Source: an uncultured Gammaproteobacteria bacterium
Lineage (GTDB): Bacteria; Patescibacteriota; Patescibacteriia; Patescibacteriales; UBA12465
DNA length: 64,000 nucleotides
Direction of reading: 5' to 3'
Assembly: GCA_964548885.1 (NCBI GenBank)
Contig: CAZJSQ010000001.1
Coordinates: 52,782-116,781 of the forward strand
Each line of letters opens with the position of its first letter. The first letter of the stretch is position 1. Made by a program: the position numbers and the translations under genes. Under the pieces are notes generated by a model. That model was not told the origin of the DNA. It ran no database searches and worked only from the letters and a program-made list of their open reading frames with translations. Of the stretch, positions 34,990 to 63,683 are shown in pieces.

Positions 34990-35568
34990 ATGGATATTGA
35001 AATTGAATACGAAGCGACTTTCCTAAATATTAATAAAGACGAAATCCGCACCCGTCTTAAAAAAGCCGGAGCGGCTTTAATAAAGCCGGAATTCTTAATG
35101 AAAAGAATTGTCTTTGAATTGCCGGCCGGCCATGAAATCAAAGGCGGTTGGTTAAGAGTGCGCGACGAGGGCGACAAAATAACTATGAGCTTGAAAATAG
35201 TCGACGGCGACAAAATAGAAAATCAGAAAGAAATTTGCCTTAAGATCGATAATTTCAATGAGGGGGTTAAGTTTTTAGAGGCTATCGGCGCCAAACAGAA
35301 AGCCTATCAGGAAAGCCGCCGCGAACTTTGGACTTTAAATGATGTGGAAATAACTCTTGATGAATGGCCATATTTAGAACCTTATGTTGAAATAGAAGGG
35401 AAGTCTGAAACAGAAGTTAAAAACATTAGCGAGAAATTAGGTTTTGATTACGCCCTGGCCTTATTCTGTTCGGCGGATGTTTTATATAATAAAAAGTACG
35501 GCGTGCCTTTTAAAGTCATAAATAAAACCAGACGCATAACTTTTACGGATCCTAATCCATTTATATAA
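34990..35568 (+). CDS. CYTH-domain protein (CyaB/class IV adenylate cyclase-like), paralog of the island CYTH gene
   Basis: The N-terminus IEIEYEATF (ExExK-type) and the C-terminal half align with the ORF at 6179. Same ~190-aa architecture. Confidence 0.65.
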   Translation: MDIEIEYEATFLNINKDEIRTRLKKAGAALIKPEFLMKRIVFELPAGHEIKGGWLRVRDEGDKITMSLKIVDGDKIENQKEICLKIDNFNEGVKFLEAIGAKQKAYQESRRELWTLNDVEITLDEWPYLEPYVEIEGKSETEVKNISEKLGFDYALALFCSADVLYNKKYGVPFKVINKTRRITFTDPNPFI

Positions 35569-48176: not shown

Positions 48177-48218
48177 TATCTCTCCTAGATTGATATCTCG
48201 CCGGTTTTCGACTTAATA

Positions 48219-48256
48219 AAAAAGAACCGCGATTTAATCTCGCGGTTCTTTTTATA
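48219..48256. terminator. Bidirectional intrinsic terminator (9-bp perfect stem GAACCGCGA/TCGCGGTTC)
   Basis: AAAAAAGAACCGCGA-TTTAATC-TCGCGGTTCTTTTTAT between convergent genes. Confidence 0.8.
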
Positions 48257-48312
48257 TTCAAATTATCTTTTTAAGGCGTTGACTTTCGTAGACCTAATTA
48301 ATAGCTCGCGCT

Positions 48313-49617: not shown

Positions 49618-49774
49618 ATATGACTTATATTTGAATAAAATTTTAAATACTGGTCTATTCTAAAACCGGTATTTCTTGGCTTTTTAATTATTTTTTTATG
49701 TAATCTAAAGAGTTTATCACTTTTTAAATAAACAGTCAAGAGTAAAAGATTGGCTGCATTTTAAAATTAAAAGA

Positions 49775-49803
49775 TTGACACATATTAAGATAAATGATAT
49801 TAT
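49775..49803 (+). promoter_or_regulatory. Sigma70-like promoter (TTGACA, 17-nt spacer, TATTAT)
   Basis: Consensus elements lie ~85 nt upstream of the gene at 49889. Confidence 0.45.
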
Positions 49804-49888
49804 AAAAGATTCTAAATATTATTAAGAGAAATTTTAAGAAATTTGGACAAAAATAGAACTTTAAAAACTTAACTAATACTGATACATA

Positions 49889-50989
49889 ATGAAAAAAGTA
49901 ATTTTTCTTATTTTATTATTAGGCGCTTTTTGCGTTAACAATTTGCGAGCGCAAAAATTGCAGGCGCCCTGGTATCTTCCGACGATGAGCCTGGAAGAAG
50001 CCAGGCAGCTTAAGGGCTACGATTGGGTCATAGTCGATCCGGAAATTATCTTCAATAGTAGAGCATCTTTAGATGCTCTGCGCGCGGATAATCCTAATAT
50101 TAAAATCTACTGCTACTTTAATGTGGCAGAATGGTTTTTCCCAATGTGGGATGATAAGCCTTGGTCCAAAAACATTGTCTCTTTCTTAGATAAGAAAGAG
50201 GAATGGTTCCTACACGGTAAAGACGGGAAAAGGTTGAATTTCTGGACGGACGAAAAAACCGGGAAGAAAATGCTGACTATGAATTGTCGCATAGACTGTC
50301 CAAAATTACCGGTCTATTCGATTAACGAAAAAATGAGTTATATCGAATTCATTACCGATCGTTTTGTTCAGGATATTCTTAGAACTTATCCATTTGACGG
50401 CGTATTAATGGATAATCTTTGGTATCGTATTACCTGGTTAGGCAAATACGGAACCAACAAAAGTGGTTTTGACTACGGGTTCATACAAAATAACGATTCA
50501 GTATCGTTGAATCTGCTTTGGAAACAGGGGATGGATTACTGTCTGAATACGCTGAAAAATTTTGGCGGTCCGGACTTTATTCTTGTCGGCAATCCTGGTC
50601 ACTTGAGCTACCCGCAGTGTTCAGGAAAGATGTTTGAAAACTTTCCTGAGATCTATCTAAATAAAAAAGATACGCTCTATGAAGCGTGGTATGAAAATCT
50701 CAACAATGCCGCGACTTTCGCGCCAGGTCCTTGCATCTTCAACGCCCGAGCCGACAATTATTTTTTTACTCTTTGCTCGGCCATGCTTCTTGATAATGTT
50801 TATTTTTCATATTTACAAAATCAAAAATATGAAAGTAAATATAATCTGGAACTGGGCAAGCCGCTGGGGCCCGCGCAAGCAGGTAACAGCATTCATAGCC
50901 GAGTTTACGAGAACGGAACAGTTTTCGTTAATCCTCTATTCGAGAAAGCTTGGATAACCTACAACGACGGACGGGAACGAAAAGAATAA
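49889..50989 (+). CDS. Secreted hypothetical protein, possibly a glycoside-hydrolase-like TIM barrel
   Basis: Signal peptide (LLLGAFCVNNLRAQ) and a Trp/Tyr-rich 366-aa protein. The GH-like call is weak and from memory of DUF4015-type proteins. Confidence 0.45.
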   Translation: MKKVIFLILLLGAFCVNNLRAQKLQAPWYLPTMSLEEARQLKGYDWVIVDPEIIFNSRASLDALRADNPNIKIYCYFNVAEWFFPMWDDKPWSKNIVSFLDKKEEWFLHGKDGKRLNFWTDEKTGKKMLTMNCRIDCPKLPVYSINEKMSYIEFITDRFVQDILRTYPFDGVLMDNLWYRITWLGKYGTNKSGFDYGFIQNNDSVSLNLLWKQGMDYCLNTLKNFGGPDFILVGNPGHLSYPQCSGKMFENFPEIYLNKKDTLYEAWYENLNNAATFAPGPCIFNARADNYFFTLCSAMLLDNVYFSYLQNQKYESKYNLELGKPLGPAQAGNSIHSRVYENGTVFVNPLFEKAWITYNDGRERKE

Positions 50990-51026
50990 TCCGCTAAAGG
51001 ATTAAGAACAAAAAGAATTTAAAATC

Positions 51027-51070
51027 AAAAAAACCGCTTATTCGCAAGGAGAAAGCGGTTTTATTTTTGC
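51027..51070. terminator. Bidirectional intrinsic terminator
   Basis: AAAAAAACCGCTT-ATTCGCAAGGAGA-AAGCGGTTTTATTTTTG. Confidence 0.65.
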
Positions 51071-51146
51071 TCGGTTATCTTTTAAGCGAAACGGTCTAAT
51101 GAGCCGAAATTACCGATGGACCTAAACTATTAATAAGCCTAAACCG

Positions 51147-52496
51147 TTAAACAACCAGATCATCTTTATCTCGTTTACTCTCCAAATAAGCGAACATCAG
51201 CGCGCCATTAAGCGCCCAGAAGCTCCACTGCAGGGAGGAATCTTTTAAAATATTGTCGCCCGCGCTGAAAAGATAGAGGGAAACAAAAAAGACGAACATA
51301 AACAGAAACAATAATTTCCGCCGCGGCCATTGCTCGTTCCTAAAACCCTGAACCAAGCGCGCTAAGAGATTAATGATCAAAGCGAGATAGGCGGCCAGAC
51401 CGATGGCACCGGTTTCCAAGAGAACTTTTATATAATCATTGTGCGGCTCGCTGGAACCTAAAATAGCGGACCGGTTATTGCCGATGACTATCGGGGCGGT
51501 TCCCGGACCGTAGCCTAATAGAGGTCGACTTTGAGCGTAACCGAGCGCGTCGCGCCATAAATCCAGACGCCAGACGGTTGAATCTGTCGCCGAGAAAGAA
51601 ACCAGACTGTTCACCCTTTCCTGGAAAGGGATGAAGATAATGTAAAAAACAATAATCAGGCCTAAACCGGCCAATAAGAAAGCCCGGAAGCGAGTCAGGC
51701 CGATTAAGAAAAAAATAATGAACAGGCAGAGCCAAGCGCCGCGGGTATAGGTTAAAACTAAAACAACCAAGAAAGGCGCCGCCAAGACAAGATATAAATA
51801 TCTTTCCACCGCCTGTTTTTTTAAAGATAAAAAAATGAAACAAGCGAGAGTGATGACGAAGACCAAATAGAAGGCGAGCATATTCGGATGGACGAAAGTC
51901 CCGTTCAAGCGCCAGCGCTCGCCGTCAAATACGCCCTGTCTATTAAGCGCCTGCCAGACGGCTACGGCTGTCGGAATAAGAGAAGAGGCGATAAGTATCC
52001 TGATAAGACTCGTTAAGCGCTTGCTGCCCCTAAAAAGATAGAAGCCGAGAACAAATAAGGCGAAGAAGCTCAACCAGCGCAAGAATTCCACCAGGCTCGC
52101 GCTCAAGCTGATGGAATTAAAAGATAGAGCGGCGGCCAAGACCAAAAATAATATCCAAGAACCGGCTAAAGGCATCTTTTTCCGCCAGCCCTTATTTTTG
52201 ATAAAAACCGCGGCCGCGAAAATAAGAACGATAACGCCCATGAGCGAAGTGAAGTTGACGCCCAGCTCGCCAAGGGAAAAGATATTCCGGTCGGTCAAAA
52301 AATCGGACGCCGTCCGCATAATAATAAGAACCGCGAAAGCGACGCGAGGATAAAAGAAAGAAGCGGTGAAAGCGCCGAGCGCCAGAATCGTTAGTAATAA
52401 CAAGCCCGGGCTTTGCGTCCAAAATATCGCGATCAAAAAAGAGACCGCCAGGAAAACGGCCGCGGCGAGAGTGAATGAACGCTTAGTCTTTTCCAT
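51147..52496 (-). CDS. O-antigen ligase / polymerase family membrane protein (Wzy_C-like)
   Basis: About 12 TM helices with a large periplasmic loop; the size and topology are typical of the O-antigen ligase family. The start is trimmed to the internal Met (MEKTKRS) because the ORF-track N-terminus (to 52691) overlaps the divergent GT4 gene by 95 nt. Confidence 0.6.
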   Translation of the reverse strand: MEKTKRSFTLAAAVFLAVSFLIAIFWTQSPGLLLLTILALGAFTASFFYPRVAFAVLIIMRTASDFLTDRNIFSLGELGVNFTSLMGVIVLIFAAAVFIKNKGWRKKMPLAGSWILFLVLAAALSFNSISLSASLVEFLRWLSFFALFVLGFYLFRGSKRLTSLIRILIASSLIPTAVAVWQALNRQGVFDGERWRLNGTFVHPNMLAFYLVFVITLACFIFLSLKKQAVERYLYLVLAAPFLVVLVLTYTRGAWLCLFIIFFLIGLTRFRAFLLAGLGLIIVFYIIFIPFQERVNSLVSFSATDSTVWRLDLWRDALGYAQSRPLLGYGPGTAPIVIGNNRSAILGSSEPHNDYIKVLLETGAIGLAAYLALIINLLARLVQGFRNEQWPRRKLLFLFMFVFFVSLYLFSAGDNILKDSSLQWSFWALNGALMFAYLESKRDKDDLVV

Positions 52497-52595
52497 AAGA
52501 AATGCTATAATTATACATATTTCAATTTTATCAATAAAAGCTGGAAAGTCAAAGTGCGCCGCTAAAAAGCCAAGCGCCGCAATCAAAAAACTAAA

Positions 52596-53879
52596 ATGCG
52601 CATTCTCCAAGTTAATAAATTTTATTACCCCAAGGGCGGGGCGGATAAATACTTCCTCGACCTGACTAAAGCCTTGAACGCGGCCGGACACGAGACCGCG
52701 GTTTTCGCTATGGCCGATCCGCGCAATTTAAAATCACCCTATTCCAAATATTTCGCGGCGGCGGCGGAGTTTAACGGCGGCGGTTTAAAAGATAAATTGA
52801 AAATTCCGGGGCGGATGATTTATAGCCGAACCGCTCAACGTAAATTCGCGCGCGAGCTTGATGATTTCAAGCCCGATATCGTCCATGTCCATAATATCTA
52901 TCATCAGCTTTCGCCGTCAATTTTAGAAGCGGCCAAAGCCAGAGGAATTCCGGTCGTGACGCATCTTCATGACTATAAGTTAGTTTGTCCGAATTATCGC
53001 TTATTCACGAAAGGACATATTTGCCGAAAATGCTTGGATAGGAAAAGCTACTTACCCTGTTTAGCCAATAACTGTTATGAGTCTTATTCACGAAGCTTTT
53101 TGGCGACATTAGAAATGACTATCCATCATAAATGGCTTCATATCTATGAGAAGAATATTAATTTATTAATCGCCCCCAGCGAATTCATGCGGCGCTTGAT
53201 GATTGAGGGCGGTTGGCCGGAAGAGAAAATTATCACGGTTTATAATCCGGCGCCAAGAGTTTCCGAGGCGCTTTTAAACACGGAAGACGGCCTATTGAAA
53301 AATGATTATCAAAATAATTACCCGGAAGAAGATTATTTATTATACTTCGGACGCCTGGCGCCGGAAAAGGGAATCAGTGATTTAGCCAAGGCCGTAAGAT
53401 CCGCCGGCCGGCACAGCGGTCAAAAGTTACATATTGTCGGCGAGGGTTCGGAAGAAAAAAACATTCGGACGGAGTTCGGCCCGGAAATAAAAAGCGGGCA
53501 GATAAAATTATTGGGTCAGCTCTCCGGTCAATCTTTAAACGATGAAATCGCCCAAGCGCGCGCGGTTATCTTTCCGTCAATCTGGCCGGAGAATATGCCG
53601 CTCGCCCTTCTTGAGTCTTTAGCCCAAGGGAAAATAGTCATCGCCAGCCGCGTCGGCGGCTTGCCGGAAATAATCAAAGATAAAGAAAACGGCTTCCTGT
53701 TCAAAGCCGGCGATATCAAGGAACTGGAGGCGGTAATTAGAGCGGTTTGCGAGCTTAAATTTGAAGCTAAAAGAAATATAGAACTTAAGGCCAGAGAGAG
53801 TGCCCGGATACTTAACCCTGATAGCCATCTGGTCAAGATACTACAAATATACTCAAAGTTAGCCAAAAAATCGGGGTAA
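52596..53879 (+). CDS. Family 4 glycosyltransferase (GT4; Glycos_transf_1)
   Basis: The C-terminal domain FPSIWPENMPLALLESLAQGKIVIASRVGGLPEII matches the GT4 E-x7-E region. Length is 427 aa. Confidence 0.85.
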   Translation: MRILQVNKFYYPKGGADKYFLDLTKALNAAGHETAVFAMADPRNLKSPYSKYFAAAAEFNGGGLKDKLKIPGRMIYSRTAQRKFARELDDFKPDIVHVHNIYHQLSPSILEAAKARGIPVVTHLHDYKLVCPNYRLFTKGHICRKCLDRKSYLPCLANNCYESYSRSFLATLEMTIHHKWLHIYEKNINLLIAPSEFMRRLMIEGGWPEEKIITVYNPAPRVSEALLNTEDGLLKNDYQNNYPEEDYLLYFGRLAPEKGISDLAKAVRSAGRHSGQKLHIVGEGSEEKNIRTEFGPEIKSGQIKLLGQLSGQSLNDEIAQARAVIFPSIWPENMPLALLESLAQGKIVIASRVGGLPEIIKDKENGFLFKAGDIKELEAVIRAVCELKFEAKRNIELKARESARILNPDSHLVKILQIYSKLAKKSG

Positions 53880-53949
53880 ACCCGATTTTCCTTTACCCAT
53901 TGACTAAAAAAATATAATATGTTATTGTGATAAGTCATCGAATAAATCT

Positions 53950-54597
53950 ATGGAAATTACAAGTTTTCTAAAAATAATTAAAAAACGTCAAGGGGCGATT
54001 ATTGCTTCTGTTTTGATTTTTCTGGCGATTGCTATGGTGATAACCTTCAGCCAACCGTTGAAATATCGGGTTAGCTCCCGCTTACTGATTATCTCCGACG
54101 GGGCTATTTCCGATCCTTATACCATCGCAAAATCCAATCAATATCTAAGCTCCTTATTGTCCGAGGCGGTTTATTCCGGTTCTTTCTTCCAGCTTTTAAC
54201 CGCTTCCAATTATGATATCAACTGGAATTATTTCAGCGGCGATTACAAGAAGCAGATTAAAATATGGAAGAAAAGCATTATGACCCGCAGCGTCAACGAT
54301 ACCGGCGTTCTGGAAGTGGAAGTCTATCATCCGGATCCTTACCAGGCGAGGCAAATAGCTTATGCCGTCAATAACGCTTTAATCACCCAAAATAATGTTT
54401 ATCAAGGTTCGGCGACCGGTTTAAGAGTCAAGGTCATTGACGAACCGACGGTCTCTTCTTATCCGGTCAAACCGAACCTGCCTTTGAACGCCGGCGCGGC
54501 CATTATTTTCGGCGGCGCTTTCGGCTTGGCGTATATCTATTATTTTCCGATCAGCCGCAAGGAAAGACGTTTGACCATTTTGAAAAATTTACGATAA
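53950..54597 (+). CDS. Wzz-like polysaccharide chain-length determinant / LPS biosynthesis protein (short form)
   Basis: An N-terminal TM, a periplasmic domain, and a C-terminal TM with a Gly-rich AGAAIIFGGAFGLAYIYYF. It sits within the glycan cluster. Confidence 0.5.
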   Translation: MEITSFLKIIKKRQGAIIASVLIFLAIAMVITFSQPLKYRVSSRLLIISDGAISDPYTIAKSNQYLSSLLSEAVYSGSFFQLLTASNYDINWNYFSGDYKKQIKIWKKSIMTRSVNDTGVLEVEVYHPDPYQARQIAYAVNNALITQNNVYQGSATGLRVKVIDEPTVSSYPVKPNLPLNAGAAIIFGGAFGLAYIYYFPISRKERRLTILKNLR

Positions 54598-54617
54598 CGG
54601 CGGTGCTATAGCCGAGA

Positions 54618-54681
54618 GGGAATCAGATAATTAATTCCCCTTGGACTTGAAGGCCCGAAAAATATTCGGTCCTTAAAGTCC
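54618..54681 (+). other. Two consecutive stable hairpins in the intergenic region (GGGAAT...ATTCCC; GGACTTGAAGGCCCGAA...TTCGGTCCTTAAAGTCC)
   Basis: Inverted repeats seen directly. The second has a 17-bp stem with 2 mismatches, and no T-run follows. Confidence 0.4.
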
Positions 54682-54726
54682 AAGATGACCTTTAAAAATT
54701 GAATATAAAAATAACTAATACTTGTT

Positions 54727-55605
54727 GTGATGAAAAAGAAAATTTTGCTGATTATTTTTCTTCTTCTTTTAGCGTTACTAACGCTAGGAGAAAAAGCTCA
54801 AGCTCAAGAACTTATAGGCCTGGCGGGAGCGGGATTATTCCGCACCATACCAACCGCCGAAAGAACTATCGGCGACTTCGAGTTCATTGAAGGCCGACTG
54901 ATGTTTGGTAATAAGATCAGGTTCGGCCCGATGGCCAACTATACCTGGGCTTACGCCAGAATGAGTGAAGAAGACCCTTTCTATTACAAAGGGCGATTCT
55001 ATACTCTAGGCTTATCGTTTGATACCTGGGGTAAAGCTCTCGGATTGCACTATTACTCATGGCTCAATTCCGGCATCCGCTGGAGTTATGACCGGGGCGC
55101 CTCTACTGTTTACAATTCTTGGCAAAGAGATAAGCTCTTCCTGATTCAGGGAGGTTTGAGATTGACCAAGATTGAAAGTAAATGGTTCAGCAATAGCCTA
55201 TTTATGGGTGAACTGCTAGAGCCGATTGAAAACGGTGAAAACCGTTACAGCACTATTCCCGATATAGTCGTTGCCGGGACTCCTTATAAGAAAGGCGGAT
55301 ACCGTCTCACTTATGAAACAGGAATAAAAAAATTTGCGTTTTCCGTTAGGGAACGGGAAATCAGGTTTGAACCTATCGCCCATCTCGGGTATGGCTCGGA
55401 GAAAGCTTATAACCGCCAGTATATTGAATACGGCGGCGGATTTGCCTTTAGCTATTTTAAGGAATGGCAGAGGGAATTATTCAAGATTAAAGCATTTCAG
55501 CACCAAGATCTTGATGGGTATAACCCGCAAAGTAATGACGGCTCTCAACCGCCACGATTGCAGGTCGAAATTGTAATTAACCTGCTTAACTGGAAAATTA
55601 ACTAG
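54727..55605 (+). CDS. Secreted hypothetical protein (aromatic/Gly-rich, possible beta-barrel)
   Basis: Signal peptide (LLIIFLLLLALLTLGEKAQAQ). Length is 292 aa. Confidence 0.55.
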   Translation: MMKKKILLIIFLLLLALLTLGEKAQAQELIGLAGAGLFRTIPTAERTIGDFEFIEGRLMFGNKIRFGPMANYTWAYARMSEEDPFYYKGRFYTLGLSFDTWGKALGLHYYSWLNSGIRWSYDRGASTVYNSWQRDKLFLIQGGLRLTKIESKWFSNSLFMGELLEPIENGENRYSTIPDIVVAGTPYKKGGYRLTYETGIKKFAFSVREREIRFEPIAHLGYGSEKAYNRQYIEYGGGFAFSYFKEWQRELFKIKAFQHQDLDGYNPQSNDGSQPPRLQVEIVINLLNWKIN

Positions 55606-55647
55606 AATGAAAAAAATTATCACAAATTAAAAAAGGAGAAATTAATC

Positions 55648-56630
55648 ATGGAAACGAAAAAACCGAATGTCACAGGAAAAAAAGCAAATTCTATCCGTTT
55701 CGATGGATAATAGTAGGAATACTTTTACTGTTATTAGTTGGAGCCTTAGTTGCGAGCTATATTTGCTCTCATCACAGACAAGTCAAGAATATCAACTGGG
55801 TCGAAATTGACTCAACTTATCTGGCAAATCTTAAGAAAGACTCGCAGAGTTTATTGGATTTAAGAGGAGAATTCGAAAGCACTAAGTCTGCTCTGAAAAT
55901 GAGTACGGATCAGACGATAATACTGCAGTATGAACTGGATAAATGCCTGGGAGTAAAGAAGACGGTCGTGAAAAATACGACTTCGACCGCGAAGAAATTA
56001 TTGCCGCCACCTCCTCCACCTCCTCCTAAACCAAAAGCTGCAGCCGTTAGTTCGACTGATTTAGTTGCTAAAGAAACCTTCAAGCCGCCAGCCGAGAAAC
56101 CAAAGATGGAATCAACCTACAAAACTTCTCTGGATGGAACAAAATTTATTGGCCTGAAGGACGGAGATTTTTACATCACCATTTCCGACGGCGGTTATCT
56201 GCAGTATGTTTTCGCTAAAAGATTGTACGACGAAGCCGGTGGTAAAGGAATGCCGGAATTAAATTCTAAGGGGAGTGGTAAGTTGTTTGAGTTAGATGGC
56301 GATTTCTATATTTATATAGATAAAACAGCGCCGGCGACCGGAGTTGCCCTAACGCACACTTACTTATGGACTGTGTACATAGGCGATAGAGATGGTTACA
56401 GCGCATACTTGCCGCATGAACTCATTAAGCCGGATATAATTCGGGCTAGAGGGGAATTGGCAGGTACTATCAGCCCGGAAGACGTGATAAAAATCGGAGA
56501 ATCAGTCTCCGAAATTCAAAATGGTCGAATAAAGCCTAATAAAATTACGGCTATTGGTGATTACGACGGTTTGAAATATGAAGGGTGGCATTTCTGCACC
56601 CCCGTTATGTATAAAACCATGCAGGAGTAG
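55648..56630 (+). CDS. Hypothetical membrane-anchored proline-rich protein whose reading frame is interrupted in an A7 tract (frameshift or homopolymer error); the in-frame ORF-track segment is 55854..56630
   Basis: A strong RBS (AAAAGGAG) precedes the ATG at 55648, which gives the 20-aa METKKPNVTGKKANSIRFDG. One extra A in the A7 run at 55677-55683 would join this to the frame encoding the TM helix WIIVGILLLLLVGALVASYIC and the 258-aa ORF. That frame has no start codon of its own before 55854. Confidence 0.45.
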
Positions 56631-56645
56631 TTCTCTACAAAAATA

Positions 56646-56677
56646 CAAAGGGTCTGACTAAAACAGACCCTTTTTTA
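56646..56677 (+). terminator. Rho-independent terminator
   Basis: AAAGGGTCTG-ACTAAAA-CAGACCCTTTTTTTAT (8-bp perfect stem plus T7). Confidence 0.8.
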
Positions 56678-56699
56678 TATACTTTAGTTTTTTATTTTC

Positions 56700-56728
56700 C
56701 TTGACAAAAATATAAAAATATTATACAA
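56700..56728 (+). promoter_or_regulatory. Sigma70-like promoter (TTGACA, 17-nt spacer, TACAAT)
   Basis: Near-consensus elements lie ~40 nt upstream of the GT4 gene at 56770. Confidence 0.55.
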
Positions 56729-56769
56729 TGTATTTACAAATGTCCAAAAACATTATATAATAATTTGTT

Positions 56770-57885
56770 ATGAGAATCGCATTTATCGGACAAAAAGGCG
56801 TGCCGACTCAAAACGGCGGCGTCGAAAGATACGTAGAAAGCCTGGCCCTTGACCTGGTAAACAGAGGGGTGGAGGTTTTAGTATATTCTCGTCGCTATTA
56901 TAGCCGGGGCATTAAGGAATATAAAGGCATTAAAGTCATTTCCTTGCCCAGTATCAAAAGTAAAAACCTGGAAGCGATTTTCAATACTTTTTTAGCCTGT
57001 TTTGACGTTGCTCGGCGTAAAGTTGACGCGATTAATTTTCAAGCCATCGGCCCGGCTTCTTTAATCTGGCTGGTTAAAATATTTAAACCGAAGACGCCGA
57101 TAATCTTCACTTTTCATTGTCGAGACTATTATCATAAAAAATGGGGGTTCTTCGCGCGGTTCTATCTGAAATTCGGAGAAAGGATCGGCTGCCGCTGTGC
57201 GGATAAAGTCGTGGTCACTTCTCGAGTCTTGAAAGAATACGTTAAAAAAACGTATGGCTTTGATCCTATTTATATTCCTTACGGCGCTTATGCTCAAGAA
57301 ATTATTCCGGTTAGAGACATCAGACGCTGGGGCTTGGAAGAAAAAAATTATCTGGCCTATATCGGCCGTCTAGTCCGTCATAAGAATGTCCACCTCTTGA
57401 TTGCCGCTTTCAAACAGATAAAAACCGATAAAAAATTAGTCATCGTCGGCGGTTCTTCTTATACCGATAATTATGTCAGGGAATTAATGGACTTGGCTAA
57501 AGATGACGAGCGGATTATCTTTACCGATAATCAGTCCGGACATATCTTAAATGAATTATTCGCCAATACTTATGTCTTCGTCCAGCCGTCCGAATATGAA
57601 GGCCTGTCGGTCGCGCTTCTGGAAGCTATGGGCTGGGGCTTAGCCTGCCTGGTCAGCGATATCGACCAAAATCTCGAAGGGATTGAGGGTACCGGCCTGA
57701 GCTTCAAAGAGGGCGATGTTCAAGATTTGAAAGAGAGGCTGGAATATTTATTGGCTAATCCGGCTGAAGCAGAACGCTTAGGTCGAGCGGCTAGAGAGAG
57801 AATTAAAAATGAATATAATTGGCCCGGAGTCGCTTCCCAATTGGAAACCGTCTACCGCGAGGCCATTGCCGGCCGGAAGAAATAA
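56770..57885 (+). CDS. Family 4 glycosyltransferase (GT4)
   Basis: YVFVQPSEYEGLSVALLEAMGWGLACLVSDI matches the GT4 EX7E motif. Length is 371 aa. Confidence 0.85.
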   Translation: MRIAFIGQKGVPTQNGGVERYVESLALDLVNRGVEVLVYSRRYYSRGIKEYKGIKVISLPSIKSKNLEAIFNTFLACFDVARRKVDAINFQAIGPASLIWLVKIFKPKTPIIFTFHCRDYYHKKWGFFARFYLKFGERIGCRCADKVVVTSRVLKEYVKKTYGFDPIYIPYGAYAQEIIPVRDIRRWGLEEKNYLAYIGRLVRHKNVHLLIAAFKQIKTDKKLVIVGGSSYTDNYVRELMDLAKDDERIIFTDNQSGHILNELFANTYVFVQPSEYEGLSVALLEAMGWGLACLVSDIDQNLEGIEGTGLSFKEGDVQDLKERLEYLLANPAEAERLGRAARERIKNEYNWPGVASQLETVYREAIAGRKK

Positions 57886-58636: not shown

Positions 58637-59596
58637 TTAAATCCATTTCTTGCTCTTAAAAAACATCAGCATCCCGATGGAACAAAAACCCATTATACCC
58701 AAAATCGTCCAGAAACCCAAAGGATGTTCAACAAAGGGCATATATTTGGCGTTCATCCCGAAAATCCCCGCGAGTAATGTCAGAGGAAAAACAATAACCG
58801 AGAATATGGTCAGAGTTTTCATGATATCGGTCATCCGGTCGTTTAAAATAGATTCATTGGTGCTGTTTAGAACCTCAATCATCTCTTTTTGGTTATCCAG
58901 CATTTCCCAGATACGTTTTGAATTCTCCACCAAGACGGAATAATATTTTTTTATCGCCGTTTTTTCAACCAGGCTGCTTTCCATTTCCATCAGACTCTGG
59001 AGGATATTCTTGTGATTCTGCATGATTTTTCGGATATTGATAATATTGCGCCGGAAGGTCATAATCTTCTCCACGGCCTTTTTCTGCTGCCTCGCGAAAA
59101 TCAATTCTTCTATCTCGTTTATCTTCAAACTACTGTCATCAAGCAATTGGAAACAGTCGTCCAAGAGATGCCCCAAGACTTCATAAAGGAGTATGGCCGA
59201 TGATTCCAGAGAATAAGAAAGCAGGGAATCCGGACTTTTTTTCCCCAAGGAAAAGAAATGCGTCAAGGCTTTTAAAGTATTATTATGGACGGTTATCAGA
59301 TACCCGTGGCCGATAAAAAAATCAACTTCGCCGGCGACTATATTCTCGCCTTTAAGAGTCGGGAAGTGCAGAACCAGACAAATATAGTCATCGCCCTTAA
59401 AAATCATCGGGCGCTGGAAAGAAACCGAAGAGGCCGCCGCCTTTAAATGGGCCAGATTAAAATTATAATTCCGGCGCAAGTAATCGATCTCATCTTTGCC
59501 GGCGTTGACGATGTTTACCCATTTGACGACCGGCACCGTCCGAGGATTGTCGATTTTAAGTTCCTCAATCCTGTCGGTCAGTCTTTTATAAGCCAT
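58637..59596 (-). CDS. corA: Magnesium/cobalt transporter CorA family
   Basis: Two C-terminal TMs with a GMN motif (AGIFGMNAKYMP) and an acidic cytoplasmic N-terminal domain. Length is 319 aa. Confidence 0.8.
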   Translation of the reverse strand: MAYKRLTDRIEELKIDNPRTVPVVKWVNIVNAGKDEIDYLRRNYNFNLAHLKAAASSVSFQRPMIFKGDDYICLVLHFPTLKGENIVAGEVDFFIGHGYLITVHNNTLKALTHFFSLGKKSPDSLLSYSLESSAILLYEVLGHLLDDCFQLLDDSSLKINEIEELIFARQQKKAVEKIMTFRRNIINIRKIMQNHKNILQSLMEMESSLVEKTAIKKYYSVLVENSKRIWEMLDNQKEMIEVLNSTNESILNDRMTDIMKTLTIFSVIVFPLTLLAGIFGMNAKYMPFVEHPLGFWTILGIMGFCSIGMLMFFKSKKWI

Positions 59597-59653
59597 AAAA
59601 ATTAAAAAATAAGAAAAATAAAACTTTGACTAAAGCTAATATTTATAATAAAA

Positions 59654-59690
59654 TTAGGGTGTCATTATGAAGAATTTAGGGTGTCATTAT
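59654..59690 (+). repeat. Direct repeat TTAGGGTGTCATTAT x2 (7-nt spacer) in the promoter region
   Basis: Two perfect 15-nt copies lie 9 nt upstream of the ATG at 59699. A related ATGGGGTGTCCCAT sits upstream of the HlyD operon at 19304-19317. Confidence 0.7.
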
Positions 59691-59698
59691 TATAACAT

Positions 59699-60892
59699 AT
59701 GGTCAATATTTTGGGAATAAATTTAAGCGCTTTGAACCGCGGCGCCGCTCTCCAAAAGATCGGGGAATTTTTAAGCGACGGCCGCCAGCATTATCTCGTC
59801 ACTCCGAATCCGGAAATAATCCTTAAATCGCATCAAGACGAAGAGCTTTTTTATATTTTAAATAAAGCCGATTTATCTTTAGCCGACGGTTTCGGCATCA
59901 AGCTGGCGGGGCTTATCGCCGGTAAAAAAATTCCTCGTCTGACCGGCGCCGACTTGACTTTAGACTTACTGGCGCTCGCGCGCGAAAAGAAATTAAGAGT
60001 CGCGGTCTTAAATCGGGAGGGAGGACTTTCCCAACAAACGGCCATCTATGACGCCTTGGCGAAAAAATATCCCGGCTTGGAAACATTAGTTATTGATCAT
60101 CATCGCCATCAGCCGCTTAGCCATGAACTGCTGGAAAAGATAAACGCCTTCGCGCCCGTGTTTTTTTTTAATACTTTCGGTTCGCCTTATCAGGAGAAAA
60201 TAATTTACCACAATCTTGACAAGATGCCGAGCGTTAAAATCGCTCTCGGCGTCGGCGGCGCTTTTGATTTCATCACCGAAAAAATAAAACGAGCGCCGAA
60301 AGCGATGAGAATTATCGGTTTGGAATGGCTCTGGCGCTTAGCGCAGCAACCAAAAAGGATTAAGCGTATTTACAACGCTACTGTCGTCTTTACCGTAACT
60401 TTATTTCGCTCCAAATTCAATCATTTCTTTTATCGTCCTTGCGTCGCCTGTTTCTTATATAAAAAAGGCAATGGCGAAACAGAGGTTTTAATAGTCGAAA
60501 GAGAAGACGACCGCGGTCATTGGCAGTTGCCGCAAGGCGGAACCGACGGCGAGGCTTTGGCAGAGGCCGGCGCTCGAGAATTAAGAGAAGAGCTTAATAC
60601 CGATAAATTCGTCATGGAAGCGGTTTTTAAGAAAACTTATAGTTATCTGTTCCCGCCGGTCAGCCAGCAGAGCCCCTTATCCCTGCAGCGTCGTTTTATC
60701 TTTGATTATAAAGGCCAACGTCAAGGACTGTTCATCGCCGAATTCTTCGGGCGCAATGAAGATATTAAGGTTAATTTTTGGGATCATGCCGGCTGGCGCT
60801 GGGTCGATATCCATGATTTAGTCGCCAGTGTTCATGAGTGCCGCCGCGAAGCCACTCGAATATTCTTAGCTAAATTCAAGTCTTTAAAGTAA
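59699..60892 (+). CDS. Fusion protein: WecB/TagA/CpsF-family glycosyltransferase (GT26) N-terminal domain plus a C-terminal NUDIX hydrolase domain
   Basis: GT26: ILGINLSAL...VTPNPEII...ADGFGIKLAG...GVGGAFDFITEKIKRAPKAMRIIGLEWLWRL. Nudix box: PQGGTDGEALAEAGARELREELN (the E-x7-REUxEEL pattern). Confidence 0.75.
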   Translation: MVNILGINLSALNRGAALQKIGEFLSDGRQHYLVTPNPEIILKSHQDEELFYILNKADLSLADGFGIKLAGLIAGKKIPRLTGADLTLDLLALAREKKLRVAVLNREGGLSQQTAIYDALAKKYPGLETLVIDHHRHQPLSHELLEKINAFAPVFFFNTFGSPYQEKIIYHNLDKMPSVKIALGVGGAFDFITEKIKRAPKAMRIIGLEWLWRLAQQPKRIKRIYNATVVFTVTLFRSKFNHFFYRPCVACFLYKKGNGETEVLIVEREDDRGHWQLPQGGTDGEALAEAGARELREELNTDKFVMEAVFKKTYSYLFPPVSQQSPLSLQRRFIFDYKGQRQGLFIAEFFGRNEDIKVNFWDHAGWRWVDIHDLVASVHECRREATRIFLAKFKSLK

Positions 60893-60912: not shown

Positions 60913-62397
60913 GTGTTAATTAATACATATATGTTTTCTTTCTTATTCGGCCATAAAAGTACAAAACCCCGCCTGCGCTTCGCCCCCTCTCCGACCGGTT
61001 TTTTGCATATCGGTAATTTTCGCACCGCTTTATTCGGCTATCTGCTCGCTAAAAGCCAAGGCGGTGATTTAATATTACGGATTGAAGATACCGACCAAAA
61101 AAGAGAAGTGACCGGCGCGACCGAGAGTTTAATCAAGGTTTTGAAAATTATGGGCCTAGAATTTGACGAAGGCCCGCATATCGGCGGTAAATACGGCCCT
61201 TATATTCAAACTCAACGCTTGGATATTTATCATGAATACTCCGATAAATTATTGGCCGAGAATAAGGTCTATCGTTGTTTTTGCAGCGAAGAGAGATTAA
61301 CGGAAATGCGCGCCGCCCAGGAAGCGAAAAAAGAAGCGCCGCGCTATGATAGGCGCTGCCGCGATTTAGACGCCGGCGAAGCGGAAGCGAAAATCAAGGC
61401 CGGAGCCAAATTCGTTATCCGCCAGAAGATGCCGCTTAACGGGGAAGTGAAAGTCTATGACGAACTTCGCGGCGAGATAATTTTCAAAGCGGCCGATCTG
61501 GACGACCAAGTTTTGATAAAATCCAACGGCATCCCGACTTACCAGTTCGCTAATATCGTTGACGATCATTTGATGGCGATAACGCAGGTGACGCGCGGAG
61601 ACGAATGGCTCGGGTCATTTCCCAAAAATATCTTATTATACCGCGACTTCGGTTGGACCCCGCCAAAATTCATCCACATGCCCTTGATTTTAAATAAAGT
61701 CGGCGGCGGAAAATTGAGCAAGCGCAAAGGCGATGTCTTCGTGGAAGATTATCTGGCCAAAGGCTATCTGCCGGAAGCGCTGATTAATTTTTGCGTCCTC
61801 CTGGGCTGGCATCCGAAAAGCGATCAAGAAATTTGGACACTGGCGGAACTGAAAAAAGAATTTTCGCTGGCCGGTATGGGCGCGAGTCCGGCGATTTTTG
61901 ATACGGCCAAATTGGATTATTATAATAGTTATTACCTGCGCCAAAAATCCGTCGCCGAACTGACTAAGCTCTGCCTGCCGTATTTGGAGAAAGCCGGCCG
62001 CGATATCGGCGACTTAGAAAGAACAGAAAAATTCACAGCCCTGGCGCAAGACCGCTTGAAGATTCTAAGCGAAATCGCAGCGGCGACCGATTTCTTATTT
62101 GAACTGCCCGCTTACGCGCCGGAATTATTGCGCTGGAAAAACTTGACCCCCGAAGAAGCAAAAACTAATCTGGCGCGTTTGAAACCGGAACTGGAAAAAA
62201 TTAATGAGGGTAATTGGACTAAGGACTATTTAGAAATGACTATAATAGACTGGATAAAGGCGGTCGGCGGCAAAAACGGCGATTATCTGTGGCCCCTGCG
62301 CGTCGCTCTGACCGGACTAAAAAATAGCCCGAGCCCGTTTGAAGTCGCGGACGCTTTGGGCCGAGAAGAGAGCTTAAGGCGCCTAAAATTAGCCTAA
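60913..62397 (+). CDS. gltX: Glutamyl-tRNA synthetase
   Basis: RFAPSPTGFLHIGNFRTALF (HIGH region) and KLSKRKG (KMSKS). Length is 494 aa. Confidence 0.92.
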   Translation: MLINTYMFSFLFGHKSTKPRLRFAPSPTGFLHIGNFRTALFGYLLAKSQGGDLILRIEDTDQKREVTGATESLIKVLKIMGLEFDEGPHIGGKYGPYIQTQRLDIYHEYSDKLLAENKVYRCFCSEERLTEMRAAQEAKKEAPRYDRRCRDLDAGEAEAKIKAGAKFVIRQKMPLNGEVKVYDELRGEIIFKAADLDDQVLIKSNGIPTYQFANIVDDHLMAITQVTRGDEWLGSFPKNILLYRDFGWTPPKFIHMPLILNKVGGGKLSKRKGDVFVEDYLAKGYLPEALINFCVLLGWHPKSDQEIWTLAELKKEFSLAGMGASPAIFDTAKLDYYNSYYLRQKSVAELTKLCLPYLEKAGRDIGDLERTEKFTALAQDRLKILSEIAAATDFLFELPAYAPELLRWKNLTPEEAKTNLARLKPELEKINEGNWTKDYLEMTIIDWIKAVGGKNGDYLWPLRVALTGLKNSPSPFEVADALGREESLRRLKLA

Positions 62398-62444: not shown

Positions 62445-63683
62445 ATGAAAATCTTAAAAACTCATCTTCTAAAAATCGGTCTCTTACTGGCGATTTTTAT
62501 CGGCCTGATTTGCGTCGCGCCTTTGACATTCAGCCAATACGGAAGTTTGGATGATGAAATAAATGCTTTAAATCTAAAAATCCTGAACCAAAAAAAACAG
62601 TTGGAAACTCTGCAAGAGCGCCAGCAGGAATATCAAGTCCAGATAGAATTAAAACGAAAAGATAAAATAAATCTTAGCAATCAGTTATCTATATTAGAAA
62701 ACCGTTTAGCCAAGGCGCAACTGGACATTGAGAGCGTTAATATTGAAATAGACAAAACAGGACTGGAGATAAAAAAAATTGAGATTGACAGCGATAATTT
62801 GGATCAGGCGATTGAAAAACAGAAAACCCACATCGCCAATCTTTTACGCTCCATGTACAGGCAGGATCAGATTTCCACTCTGGAGATTTTGCTTTTAAAC
62901 GATTCCTTGTCGGACTTCTTAGACCAAGCCCAATATTTAGCCGACACTAATAAAAAAATCGGAGAAAGCTTAAAAGGCTTAAGAGCCGATAAAAGCCGCT
63001 TGGAACAAAATAAGGCGGCGCTCGACGGGAAAAATACGGAACTGGTCGGCTTAAAAGACAAACTGGAAGAAAAGAAAGATAATTTGTCTTATGAACAGGA
63101 GAATAAAACTTATATTTTAGAAGAGACCCAATCTTCGGAAAAGGAATATCAAGCCTTACTGCAGCAGGCGAAAAGGGAACAGCAACAGGCGGAAGCGGAA
63201 ATTGCCAGCGCCGAACAGCTTATCCGCCAAAAAATGTCTCAGAAAGACAAGACCAGGCTCAACAACGGCAATAATACGATTGCTTGGCCGGTACCGGTCA
63301 ATACCATCGTCGCCACTTTCCACGATCCTGATTACCCGTATCGTAATATTATCGGGGAACATTCGGCGGTTGATATTCGCGCCAAACAGGGAACGGCGAT
63401 TACGGCCGCGGCCGACGGCTATGTCGCTAAAGTTAAGTTTAACGGCGACAGAAGCTACGCCTATATCATGCTTATCCACGGCAACGGCTTAGCCACGGTT
63501 TACGGCCATGTTTCCGCGGTTTATGTCATGACCGATCAATACGTTACGCAGGGACAGGCGATAGGCCGCACCGGCGGTACTCCGGGCGGCATCGGCACCG
63601 GCGGTTTTTCCACCGGACCGCATCTTCATTTCGAAGTCCGTTTGAACGGTTTGCCGGTCAATCCGCAAGAGTATTTGCCGTAA
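62445..63683 (+). CDS. M23-family metalloendopeptidase with an N-terminal coiled-coil (EnvC-like murein hydrolase activator/peptidase)
   Basis: Signal anchor, a ~230-aa coiled-coil, and the C-terminal M23 motifs HSAVDI...YGH...GPHLHFEV. Confidence 0.85.
   Translation: MKILKTHLLKIGLLLAIFIGLICVAPLTFSQYGSLDDEINALNLKILNQKKQLETLQERQQEYQVQIELKRKDKINLSNQLSILENRLAKAQLDIESVNIEIDKTGLEIKKIEIDSDNLDQAIEKQKTHIANLLRSMYRQDQISTLEILLLNDSLSDFLDQAQYLADTNKKIGESLKGLRADKSRLEQNKAALDGKNTELVGLKDKLEEKKDNLSYEQENKTYILEETQSSEKEYQALLQQAKREQQQAEAEIASAEQLIRQKMSQKDKTRLNNGNNTIAWPVPVNTIVATFHDPDYPYRNIIGEHSAVDIRAKQGTAITAAADGYVAKVKFNGDRSYAYIMLIHGNGLATVYGHVSAVYVMTDQYVTQGQAIGRTGGTPGGIGTGGFSTGPHLHFEVRLNGLPVNPQEYLP

Follow-up and report, generated by a model that had tools for sequence, protein, structure and literature searches.

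Nudix hydrolases are known in connection with surface-polysaccharide synthesis from the GDP-mannose mannosyl hydrolase (WcaH/NudD) of the colanic-acid cluster, which is encoded by a separate gene and belongs to another Nudix subfamily than the domain described here, and some Nudix enzymes act on diphosphates that are not nucleotides. The usual targets of the RppH/Ap4A hydrolases are the 5' ends of RNA or dinucleotide alarmones and not sugar nucleotides. In E. coli RppH (NudH), an RNA pyrophosphohydrolase that also removes Np4 caps, metal and phosphates are bound by R8, Q37, E53, E56, E57, Y77, Q95, E120 and K140 (PMC7144940). E. coli RppH is reported to be paired with and stimulated by DapF, an envelope-precursor enzyme (PMC6061855, PMC6061791, PMC4227774). 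The Ap4A hydrolase of Lupinus angustifolius (1f3y) is stand-alone and soluble and has the canonical GX5E loop. Nudix domains have also been found fused to nucleotide-using enzymes, as in NadM-Nudix (2qjt) and in the plant FAD synthetase-FAD pyrophosphatase (PMC9678776 for the latter), and in these the substrate of the Nudix domain lies in the pathway of its partner. Among the GT26 glycosyltransferases, the family to which WecG of enterobacterial common antigen synthesis also belongs, TagA/TarA, the N-acetylglucosaminyldiphosphoundecaprenol beta-ManNAc transferase, is represented by solved structures from T. italicus (7mpk, 7n41, 5wb4). In TagA, D65 is the proposed general base, N39 and Q167 contact ManNAc, D191 binds ribose, and a C-terminal tail (CTT) shuts over UDP-ManNAc and binds the membrane, its arginines holding the diphosphates of the lipid and of UDP (PMC8784642). 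TagA ends with this tail.

The gene that we describe here lies in the window, that is, in the whole 64-kb stretch of DNA that was analysed, and it joins a TagA/WecG-type GT26 glycosyltransferase to a NudH-type Nudix hydrolase (Table 1). Pfam places PF03808 (Glyco_tran_WecG) at aa 57-225 of its product (E 7.1e-38; 130.5 bits against a cut-off of 27.4) and PF00293 (NUDIX) at aa 245-381 (E 9.9e-12; 45.5 bits against 21.1), so that the fusion proposed earlier by a sequence-only reading of this DNA is borne out in one reading frame. The continuity of that frame between the two domains, which had been left to be checked, held, as the ORF has no stop inside it, and an identical full-length layout is present in the best 120 protein clusters (54-100% identity to the window protein) and in the best 80 GTDB species loci (45-94% identity). 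The whole fusion is encoded in 78 of these 80 loci; in one of the 80 the gene stops at the contig end at residue 324 (L063), and another has a full-length tblastn match that was hidden from the simple gene caller by an antisense ORF (L048). About 90 of the top 150 representatives at 50% identity also have the fusion layout, at identities as low as 33%. The notion that a frameshift from sequencing or assembly joined two neighbouring genes has next to no chance of being right and was ruled out by the recurrence of the uninterrupted layout in independent assemblies of no fewer than 80 species and in some 200 of the protein clusters sampled. The GT26-Nudix fusion is a genuine and widely conserved gene of Patescibacteria, and where the sources give names to its homologues these are Falkowbacteria or Patescibacteria. 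Many GTDB record titles, among them 'uncultured Gammaproteobacteria' and 'Methanosarcinaceae archaeon', disagree with the Patescibacteria labels on near-identical sequences and were regarded as unreliable.

Table 1. Features of the fusion gene and its surroundings (positions counted from the first nucleotide of the window)
Feature	Positions	Strand	Basis and remarks
GT4 glycosyltransferase with DUF1972, final gene of the glycopolymer cluster (46287-57885)	56770..57885	+	Pfam
corA, divergent upstream neighbour	58637..59596	-	Pfam CorA, E 1.7e-50; upstream in 37/71 loci
Upstream region: promoter-like TTGACT-17-TAAAAT (59626-59654), then two exact TTAGGGTGTCATTAT copies	59626..59690	+	Sequence
Whole fusion gene	59699..60892	+	397 aa + stop; ATG at 59699, TAA at 60892, one continuous frame with no stop inside; two Pfam domains; full-length homologues in at least 80 species
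GT26 (TagA/WecG) core domain, aa 1-194	59699..60280	+	TagA 7mpk match, Foldseek, residue mapping
TagA-type C-terminal tail (CTT), doubling as linker, aa 195-243	60281..60427	+	Residue mapping, AF2 helices
NudH-type (RppH / Ap4A-hydrolase-like) Nudix domain, aa 244-397	60428..60889	+	Family profile against PDB, Foldseek, NCBIfam
Nudix box, aa 280-301 (GGTDGEALAEAGARELREELNT)	60536..60601	+	Residue conservation
Variable loop in Nudix domain, aa 318-337	60650..60709	+	Length varies in alignment; pLDDT <50 at residues 322-333
gltX (glutamyl-tRNA synthetase)	60913..62397	+	Pfam tRNA-synt_1c; directly downstream of the fusion in 54/70 loci
M23 peptidase, 3' of gltX	62445..63683	+	Pfam Peptidase_M23; gene family 2, in 56 loci

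The architecture is thus common in databases, and in this respect the earlier proviso that it might turn out to be a common annotated family came true; the annotation, however, goes by the glycosyltransferase half and the fusion is functionally uncharacterised. The current pipeline name, 'WecB/TagA/CpsF family glycosyltransferase', covers the GT26 half alone and ignores the Nudix half, and it needs correcting. A literature search on the GT26-Nudix fusion, and on Patescibacteria in connection with Nudix or teichoic acid, found nothing relevant and no paper that describes the fusion, in agreement with the earlier remark that it was not known to be characterised. Some database entries of the fusion are fragments that end at contig ends. 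Conservation was counted over 198 fusion proteins, namely a close set of 121 and 77 distant fusions. In the family alignment the GT26 core had a mean pairwise identity of 0.59, the CTT one of 0.58 and the Nudix domain one of 0.58-0.61, values that point to equal purifying selection on both halves, and, as detailed below, both halves look catalytically intact by residue conservation.

Among solved GT26 enzymes, TagA of T. italicus (7mpk) matches at E 5.6e-38, with about 33% identity across aa 3-225. The AF2 model of the fusion protein has a pLDDT of 87 and a pTM of 0.70, and Foldseek matched the fold of the GT26 half to 7n41, 5wfg and 5wb4 with TM 0.86-0.89 and rmsd 2.1-2.4 A (TM 0.88 to 7n41 and 5wfg). 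N37, D63, Q165 and D190 of the window protein correspond to N39, D65, Q167 and D191 of TagA; the first three are invariant in the 198 fusion proteins and D190 is an aspartate in 195 of them. The whole CTT is present as well, in the model as helices 201-206, 209-216 and 218-238, and its residues E209, W210, R213, R220 and R223, the counterparts of TagA E210, W211, R214, R221 and R224, are kept in 198/198 proteins, except R220, which is kept in 196. Hallmark GT26 blocks had been claimed for this half; the tested catalytic and donor-binding residues of TagA are there, the one exception being the uracil-stacking Y137 of TagA, which is H137 in the window protein. The match to TIGR00696 (99 bits against a cut-off of 69) places the protein within GT26, but it falls far below the TarA equivalog NF041710 (100.7 bits against 350) and below the WecG model PRK03692 (86.9 bits against an equivalog cut-off of 323), and a ManNAc donor is a prediction here. 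Sequence and predicted fold together identify residues 1-243 as a complete TagA-type GT26 enzyme with predicted activity, to which, unlike in TagA, a 154-aa Nudix domain has been added.

When a family profile of the Nudix half was compared with the PDB, the top-scoring solved relative was the lupin Ap4A hydrolase 1f3y (2.6e-34, 121 bits), followed by E. coli RppH (about 8e-28, 100 bits), whereas the next best Nudix type after the NudH enzymes was NudI (3e-12, 49.5 bits), a gap of about 50 bits; dihydroneopterin triphosphate and diphosphoinositol phosphate hydrolases were among the weaker matches. Foldseek gave a probability of 1.00 to many Nudix structures, and its top Nudix match was E. coli RppH with RNA (4s2y, TM 0.76). 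Five NCBIfam RppH models matched all 34 members sampled with the best E-values (5e-20 to 3.8e-30), while the NudE model matched 18 of the 34 (best 8.5e-7) and the GDP-mannose mannosyl hydrolase model matched 8 of them weakly (best 2e-6). The nearest stand-alone Nudix relatives carry the names (di)nucleoside polyphosphate hydrolase or RNA pyrophosphohydrolase. Shared with RppH are the YRPNV N-terminal strand, WQxPQGG, REUxEE, GQxQ and the equivalents of Y77, E120 and K140, and common with the lupin enzyme are the motifs WQMPQGG, Y.FPP and DWKGQAQ. The assignment of the Nudix half to the NudH class (Ap4A hydrolase/RppH) by sequence and modelled fold is firm, although identity to RppH is only about 25% and the best score of the window protein against the RppH equivalog PRK00714 was 73.2 bits, below the cut-off of 116. 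Neither the PDB profile nor the comparison of the 34 members with NCBIfam revealed a specific likeness to sugar-nucleotide or lipid-PP hydrolases beyond the superfamily level. Resemblance to a subfamily, however, predicts the specificity of Nudix enzymes poorly.

A Nudix box had also been claimed, and the string quoted for it, GGTDGEALAEAGARELREEL, corresponds to aa 280-299 (nt 60536-60595). Its catalytic core is intact: the REUXEE core consists of R293, E294, L295, R296, E297 and E298, of which R293, E294, E297 and E298 do not vary within the close set, and over all 198 fusion proteins E294 is found in 196, E297 in 195 (with D in 2 more) and E298 in 197. The canonical GX5EX7REUXEEXGU differs from the window protein, which has GX4E, one residue short, and N for G at position 22. 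The shortening is specific to a sub-clade, being present in 120 of the 121 close relatives, while 59 of the 77 distant fusions have canonical spacing; a sister sub-clade has K or H for R15 and L or M for E7 of the box. These departures in the two sub-clades are what would speak for the Nudix fold being a non-catalytic module, that is, a nucleotide-binding regulatory domain or an oligomerisation domain for the transferase. We regard this as very improbable, because the catalytic residues and phosphate ligands are kept in 187-197 of the 198 fusion proteins, which is the pattern expected for an active enzyme. The residues R8, Q37, E53, E56, E57, Y77, Q95, E120 and K140 of RppH correspond to R246, Q279, E294, E297, E298, Y316, Q340, D362 and R382; besides the glutamates of the box, R246, Y316 and Q340 are each conserved in 196 proteins and Q279 in 193, position 362 is D or E in 187, and position 382 is R or K in 190. 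Judged by sequence and predicted fold, residues 244-397 thus make up a competent Nudix hydrolase of the NudH class whose activity is predicted. What is not kept is the cleft for the base of the second nucleotide, where R27, S32, V137 and F139 of RppH are replaced by E269 (variable), H274, H379 and C381 (variable); an invariant R268 adjoins the position aligned to R27. Since the base-recognition residues of RppH are not kept, the substrate may differ substantially from that of RppH.

The start of gltX lies 20-38 nt downstream of the fusion gene on the same strand, and no terminator-like site was found between the two; the arrangement of the sequence suggests that they are probably co-transcribed. 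Upstream in the window there is a glycopolymer cluster with Wzy_C-like, Wzz-like and GT4 genes (Pfam), which resembles a Wzy-dependent pathway. The GT4/DUF1972 gene family occurs in 40 of 81 sequences (80 loci and the window), mostly two or three genes 5' of the fusion. No genes for TagO/WecA, the MnaA/WecB epimerase or an LCP ligase were found within the 64-kb window, and wecA, wecB and wecC were not seen in it. The two TTAGGGTGTCATTAT copies form a 15-bp direct repeat (59654-59668 and 59676-59690), which was considered as a conserved regulatory site and rejected; it is absent from all 85 related loci and so does not belong to what is conserved in the system.

At two related loci (L084 and L085) the GT26 gene has no Nudix domain and stands in the same corA, GT26, gltX and M23 synteny as at the fusion loci, and the non-fused orthologues terminate just past the CTT segment. 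The existence of these syntenic orthologues means that the transferase reaction does not need the Nudix domain. In the flanking sequence examined around the non-fused GT26 loci (L081-L085) there is no Nudix gene of the NudH type, and neither the window nor the 80 fusion loci, which were covered for up to 8 kb to each side, showed a second gene of this type. A split version, with a GT26 gene beside a Nudix gene, was found neither among L081-L085 nor at three stand-alone NudH relatives that were examined; none of these three has a called GT26 gene adjoining, and two of them are on contigs of less than 3 kb. A neighbour-joining tree of the GT26 domains intersperses fused with non-fused forms; because of its star-like shape the conclusion is limited to a repeated change of state, whether by one gain and many losses or by many gains.

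These orthologues bear on the earlier suggestion that the Nudix half hydrolyses the UDP-sugar donor or the by-product, or trims the lipid-PP carrier, as a proofreading or recycling activity, for which we found no specific support, as the Nudix half is of the NudH class and GT26 orthologues do without it. Cleavage of a UDP-sugar or of polyprenyl-PP by the Nudix half appears less likely than that of 5'-polyphosphorylated nucleotides. The Nudix half could nevertheless hydrolyse the UDP released by GT26 to UMP and Pi, or surplus or incorrect UDP-HexNAc; at the membrane this would lessen inhibition by the product or edit the pool of donors. We hold this to be unlikely, though with a chance that should be taken seriously. 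Chemically, UDP belongs to the 5'-diphosphorylated nucleotides. NDPs and NTPs are ligands of E. coli RppH, which hydrolyses them slowly, but mononucleotides bind there with their phosphates out of reach of the catalytic site (PMC7144940). The arginines that hold the UDP diphosphate are in the CTT, directly behind which the Nudix domain starts, the base cleft of this domain, being unlike that of RppH, leaves room for mononucleotide specificity, and the fusion is kept as far as 33% identity. Nudix domains are moreover usually fused to an enzyme of the same pathway, as in the two fusions named at the outset, which favours a TagA-linked substrate; here, unlike in those, the Nudix subfamily does not match the substrates of the partner. 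Against such a clean-up also stand the syntenic GT26 orthologues that have neither a Nudix domain nor a NudH-type gene in the flanking sequence examined, the three stand-alone relatives without an adjoining called GT26 gene, and the likeness to sugar-nucleotide Nudix enzymes, which is at the superfamily level and, for GDP-mannose mannosyl hydrolase, weak and confined to 8 of 34 members.

Cutting of polyprenyl-PP or of a polyprenyl-PP-glycan, for recycling of the carrier or for aborting dead-end intermediates, seems to us hardly credible. The position of the Nudix domain beside the membrane-binding CTT would bring it near the membrane, and hydrolases of non-nucleotide diphosphates are among the weaker PDB matches; yet sequence and fold all indicate the nucleotide-polyphosphate NudH class, a hydrophobic substrate groove cannot be inferred, and the domain is dispensable in the orthologues L084 and L085.

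The reading that we prefer, and consider reasonably probable, is that the gene encodes a bifunctional peripheral-membrane protein of Falkowbacteria and related Patescibacteria, in which a TagA-type GT26 enzyme is joined to a NudH-class hydrolase of 5'-polyphosphorylated nucleotides. The GT26 half would use a UDP donor to add a ManNAc-type sugar to GlcNAc-PP-polyprenol at the cytoplasmic face of the membrane, and the product would feed a Wzy/Wzz-type surface glycopolymer pathway resembling that encoded by the cluster just upstream. The Nudix half would cut the pyrophosphate bond of a 5'-polyphosphorylated nucleotide, candidates being dinucleoside polyphosphates and 5'-tri/diphosphorylated or Np4-capped RNA ends; in the base that it prefers it would differ from E. 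coli RppH. Since there are orthologues that have no Nudix domain, the two chemistries can be separated, and a probable effect of the fusion is that it hangs the hydrolase on the membrane-binding, substrate-gated CTT. The two halves may in this way be expressed together and held at the membrane, and they might even be coupled allosterically, much as DapF stimulates E. coli RppH. What counts against this bifunctional reading is that the window protein stays below the TarA and RppH equivalog cut-offs, that the base-recognition residues of RppH are not kept, and that the 64-kb window showed none of the pathway partners TagO/WecA, MnaA and LCP.

The reported pairing of RppH with DapF is the closest conceptual parallel to the fusion, since there too an RppH is physically paired with an enzyme of cell-wall precursor synthesis; in the fusion, however, the two are linked covalently, and a membrane glycosyltransferase takes the place of the epimerase. 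If the analogy is carried further, the GT26 domain may be to an RppH-type enzyme what DapF is to RppH, but built in and bound to the membrane, for which we see a slim chance. As the Nudix domain hangs directly on the CTT, its activity would then depend on the state of envelope-glycopolymer synthesis: the CTT would close over UDP-ManNAc and dock on the membrane, and Nudix activity, or access of RNA or Np4N to it, would track the synthesis of the glycopolymer.

Patescibacteria are ultra-small, abundant and mostly uncultured, and experiments have so far revealed little about their envelope and their RNA metabolism. The fusion is one of the conserved, lineage-specific inventions of these bacteria, in which the catalytic residues of both halves are intact. 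If UDP or UDP-sugar is what the Nudix half clears, it would be the first module for product removal built into a GT26 enzyme, and a NudH fold would have been retargeted to a mononucleotide. If the Nudix half is the RppH/Ap4A hydrolase of the cell, the turnover of RNA 5' ends or alarmones would be placed at the membrane and tied to the first committed enzyme of a surface polymer, which together with RppH-DapF of E. coli would suggest that mRNA decay is quite generally coupled to the synthesis of the envelope. Should the GT26 domain act as DapF does, a link between the turnover of RNA 5' ends or alarmones and an envelope enzyme would be recurrent, non-covalent in E. coli and covalent in Patescibacteria.

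The fusion gene was translated from the window as a single open reading frame of 397 aa with no interruption, in which both Pfam domains score above their cut-offs (Table), and the GT26-Nudix fusion put forward by the sequence-only reading is thus real. Both domains were present in 120 out of 120 of the best protein clusters (54-100% identity, full coverage, 393-429 aa), and those that a source names are listed as 'WecB/TagA/CpsF family glycosyltransferase', with Candidatus Falkowbacteria or the Patescibacteria group as the organism. A GTDB scan with one genome per species gave 299 relatives, and when the best 80 of the 299 loci were retained the whole fusion was encoded in 78 of them at 45-94% identity. 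In locus L063 the contig end interrupts the fusion at residue 324, and in locus L048 the tblastn match is full-length and a longer antisense reading frame had masked the fusion in a simple gene caller. Among 50%-identity representatives of about 15 billion proteins, GT26-Nudix fusions made up about 90 of the top 150 matches, the lowest at 33% identity. The identical architecture in these clusters, loci and representatives rules out an artefact or a one-off, and the best 120 clusters and 78 of the best 80 GTDB loci bear out the continuity of the frame. The Nudix-box string of the sequence-only reading was located as well, and its remark that the fusion is not characterised holds in that no paper on a GT26-Nudix fusion was found in full-text literature searches. 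Both domains belong to well-studied families, and in databases the only name for their combination is an automatic one with no mention of the Nudix half. Among the matches listed, the closest named relative is from a Falkowbacteria MAG (94% identity), and the G+C content of the window (43.8%) and its gene content fit a Falkowbacteria origin. Many GTDB records with this Patescibacteria-type gene have the title 'uncultured Gammaproteobacteria bacterium' (L002, L005, L011 and others), and one has 'Methanosarcinaceae archaeon' (L068); these titles look like placeholders or mis-binned contigs because near-identical sequences are labelled Patescibacteria or Falkowbacteria.

The best solved relative of the GT26 half is Thermoanaerobacter italicus TagA (7mpk, E 5.6e-38 over aa 3-225), and the AlphaFold2 model of the fusion protein (mean pLDDT 87.3, pTM 0.70) matched TagA/TarA structures in Foldseek with TM 0.86-0.89. 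When the TagA residues shown or proposed to act in catalysis and substrate binding (PMC8784642) were transferred through a HMMER alignment with 7mpk, the mapped positions were kept in 195-198 of 198 fusion proteins, the sole exception being the uracil-stacking Y137, which is H137 in the fusion protein. The 49-residue C-terminal tail of TagA is needed for activity and directs the enzyme to the membrane (PMC8784642), and the Nudix domain begins right after the equivalent of this tail, at 244-245. The nearest NCBIfam models are TarA (100.7 bits) and WecG (86.9 bits), yet both are far under their equivalog cut-offs, and therefore the GT26 half is, judged from its sequence, a bona fide TagA-type GT26 enzyme with a putative ManNAc-type donor and a putative surface polymer as product.

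In a single-sequence comparison the Nudix half matched lupin Ap4A hydrolase (1f3y) with E 3e-10 and E. coli RppH with about 1e-4. When a family profile of 34 diverse fusion-protein Nudix domains was run against PDB, the matches were 1f3y (E 2.6e-34, 121 bits), E. coli RppH (about 8e-28, 100 bits) and, as the next Nudix type, NudI (3e-12, 49.5 bits), which puts the NudH class 50 bits ahead of every other type. The best Foldseek match of the modelled Nudix half is RNA-bound E. coli RppH (TM 0.76), and five NCBIfam RppH models match 34 of 34 sampled members and rank first among the models by E-value (best values 5e-20 to 3.8e-30), the window protein being below the cut-off (73 vs 116 bits). Compared to the canonical Nudix box, the G-to-E loop of the window protein is one residue shorter, which among the 198 fusion proteins is limited to its own sub-clade, and position 22 is N instead of G. 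The RppH residues that bind metals and 5' phosphates (PMC7144940) are, apart from N10, kept or conservatively replaced (Table), whereas R27, S32, V137 and F139 of its second-nucleotide base cleft are replaced by E269 (variable), H274, H379 and C381 (variable), and for this reason the Nudix half is apparently a NudH-class hydrolase, predicted to be active, with a changed base pocket. That this domain instead trims the lipid-PP carrier is very improbable, and that it is purely regulatory is equally so; both are less likely than the removal of UDP considered below.

In one sub-clade of relatives (P0121, P0122, P0125, P0126, P0127, P0131, P0132, P0133, P0138) K or H stands in for the Arg of REUXEE, and most K/H members also have a non-acidic residue (L, M, R or A) in place of the Glu at box position 7, with E kept in P0174; the two positions look like they change in a largely correlated way with the catalytic glutamates unchanged. 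In L035, L037, L058, L060 and L080 the Nudix profile matches in two pieces and the stop-to-stop frames are 438-486 aa, which indicates that about 20-40 residues have been inserted or partly repeated where the domain begins or slightly inside it.

Non-fused relatives also exist. P0184 (242 aa) is 47% identical to the GT26 half and lies in the order GT4/DUF1972, corA(-), GT26, gltX, M23 (L084), and P0181 (263 aa) in the order GT26, gltX, M23 (L085); both stop shortly past the tail, and a six-frame search found no fusion-type Nudix sequence in either locus. The GT26 transferase apparently does not need the Nudix domain. Fused and non-fused forms are mixed in a neighbour-joining tree of 132 GT26 domains, and since this tree is star-like only a repeated change of state, and no definite order of events, can be read from it. 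The fused Nudix domains share the NudH-class motifs YRxNV, WQxPQGG, REUxEE and GQxQ, and so the simplest reading would be a single old fusion followed by several losses. Non-fused P0148 (255 aa) ends in ...SVYYRNNQCAN, a sequence similar to FYRPNV of the first Nudix strand that may be left over from a lost Nudix domain; the next gene overlaps P0148. Close relatives P0151, P0165 and P0194 (about 480-500 aa) and P0269 (715 aa) show other architectures, namely tandem GT26-GT26 and a GT2-GT26 fusion. Among 36 family members the mean pairwise identity is 0.59 in the GT26 core, 0.58 in the tail and 0.58 in the Nudix domain (0.61 without the variable loop 318-337), and by this measure of sequence the two halves are under similar constraint.

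The main rival explanation, which we regard as rather unlikely, is that the Nudix domain serves the transferase by removing UDP or UDP-sugars. UDP counts among the 5'-diphosphorylated nucleotides, NDPs are slowly hydrolysed by RppH (PMC7144940), the base cleft is altered relative to RppH, and other Nudix fusions are usually pathway-linked. However, the NudH-class identity and the Nudix-less orthologues speak against it, and likewise against the hydrolysis of UDP-sugar donor or by-product suggested by the sequence-only reading. Nor was GT26-Nudix gene linkage found outside the fusion: the nearest stand-alone relatives of the Nudix domain of a distant fusion are 153-184 aa and named '(di)nucleoside polyphosphate hydrolase' or 'RNA pyrophosphohydrolase', and a called GT26 gene was beside none of the three examined, two of which are on contigs under 3 kb.

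Neighbourhoods were counted in 81 sequences, the window and 80 loci. Directly 3' of the fusion gene on the same strand is gltX in 54 of 70 cases with a visible neighbour, followed by an M23 peptidase gene; a divergent corA is 5' in 37 of 71 cases, and GT4/DUF1972 glycosyltransferases are found in 40 of the 81, in many loci two or three genes 5'. In the window gltX starts 20-38 nt past the fusion stop codon, with no terminator-like site found between them. The upstream cluster (Table) is consistent with the GT26 enzyme acting in the synthesis of a Wzy-dependent surface polymer. Within the 64-kb window, genes for TagO/WecA, UDP-GlcNAc 2-epimerase, an LCP ligase or another Nudix enzyme were not found. 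Between a promoter-like site and the fusion start codon the 15-mer TTAGGGTGTCATTAT occurs twice without mismatch, at a spacing of 22 bp, where about 0.03 chance matches are expected; with an out-of-frame ATG at its end, the first copy starts an overlapping uORF of 17 codons, and the motif was not found in any of 85 related loci. In several fused and non-fused loci a LigT/2',5'-RNA-ligase-family (RNA 2',3'-cyclic phosphodiesterase) gene is immediately 5' of GT26 on the same strand, a second RNA-end enzyme recurring beside the transferase. The window, from a small genome, also has two CYTH-domain (triphosphate tunnel metalloenzyme) proteins, likewise enzymes for polyphosphate or nucleotide substrates.

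Table. Positions of features in the fusion protein (aa), the window and related loci
Feature	Position	Details
Fusion gene	59699-60892 (+)	ATG 59699, TAA 60892
PF03808 (Glyco_tran_WecG)	aa 57-225	E 7.1e-38, 130.5 bits (cut-off 27.4)
PF00293 (NUDIX)	aa 245-381	E 9.9e-12, 45.5 bits (cut-off 21.1)
TagA tail equivalent	aa 195-243	
Nudix-box string	aa 280-299	contains REUXEE
Catalytic REUXEE	R293, E294, E297, E298	in Nudix box
TagA N39	N37	
TagA D65	D63	
TagA Q167	Q165	
TagA D191	D190	
TagA E210/W211	E209/W210	
TagA R214	R213	
TagA R221	R220	
TagA R224	R223	
RppH R8	R246	196/198
RppH N10	248	N in 170/198; C in window protein
RppH Q37	Q279	193/198
RppH E53	E294	196/198
RppH E56	E297	195/198 plus 2 D
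RppH E57	E298	197/198
RppH Y77	Y316	196/198
RppH Q95	Q340	196/198
RppH E120	D362	D or E in 187/198
RppH K140	R382	R or K in 190/198
Glycopolymer cluster	46287-57885	DUF4012, GHL15, Wzy_C/O-antigen-ligase-like, short Wzz/GNVR-like, two GT4 (one with DUF1972), no-match ORFs
434-aa ORF	48313-49617 (-)	no family match; within cluster
ORF	54727-55605	no family match; within cluster
ORF	55854-56630	no family match; within cluster
Promoter-like site	59626-59654	
15-mer, first copy	59654-59668	out-of-frame ATG at 59667
15-mer, second copy	59676-59690	
CYTH-domain protein	6179-6751	
CYTH-domain protein	34990-35568	
LigT-family gene	L082 5459-5998	of the fusion loci, about 8 carry gene family 16
LigT-family gene	L083 4151-4690	gene family 16
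P0148, non-fused GT26	L081 91-858	

The sequence thus shows that a complete TagA-type enzyme is followed, directly after its tail, by a complete NudH-type hydrolase in one polypeptide. In the reading that we prefer, the N-terminal part would take a ManNAc-type sugar from its UDP donor and add it to GlcNAc-PP-polyprenol on the cytoplasmic side of the membrane, and the C-terminal part would cleave a pyrophosphate bond in nucleotides with a 5' polyphosphate (NpnN, or the ppp-, pp- or Np4-ends of RNA) and would differ from E. coli RppH in the base that it prefers; the two chemistries would be separable. E. coli RppH binds the peptidoglycan-precursor enzyme DapF and is stimulated by it (PMC6061855, PMC6061791, PMC4227774), and this is the nearest precedent for pairing a NudH hydrolase with an envelope enzyme. 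What the fusion would give the organism is co-expression of the two activities and proximity to the membrane, and perhaps allosteric coupling through the tail.
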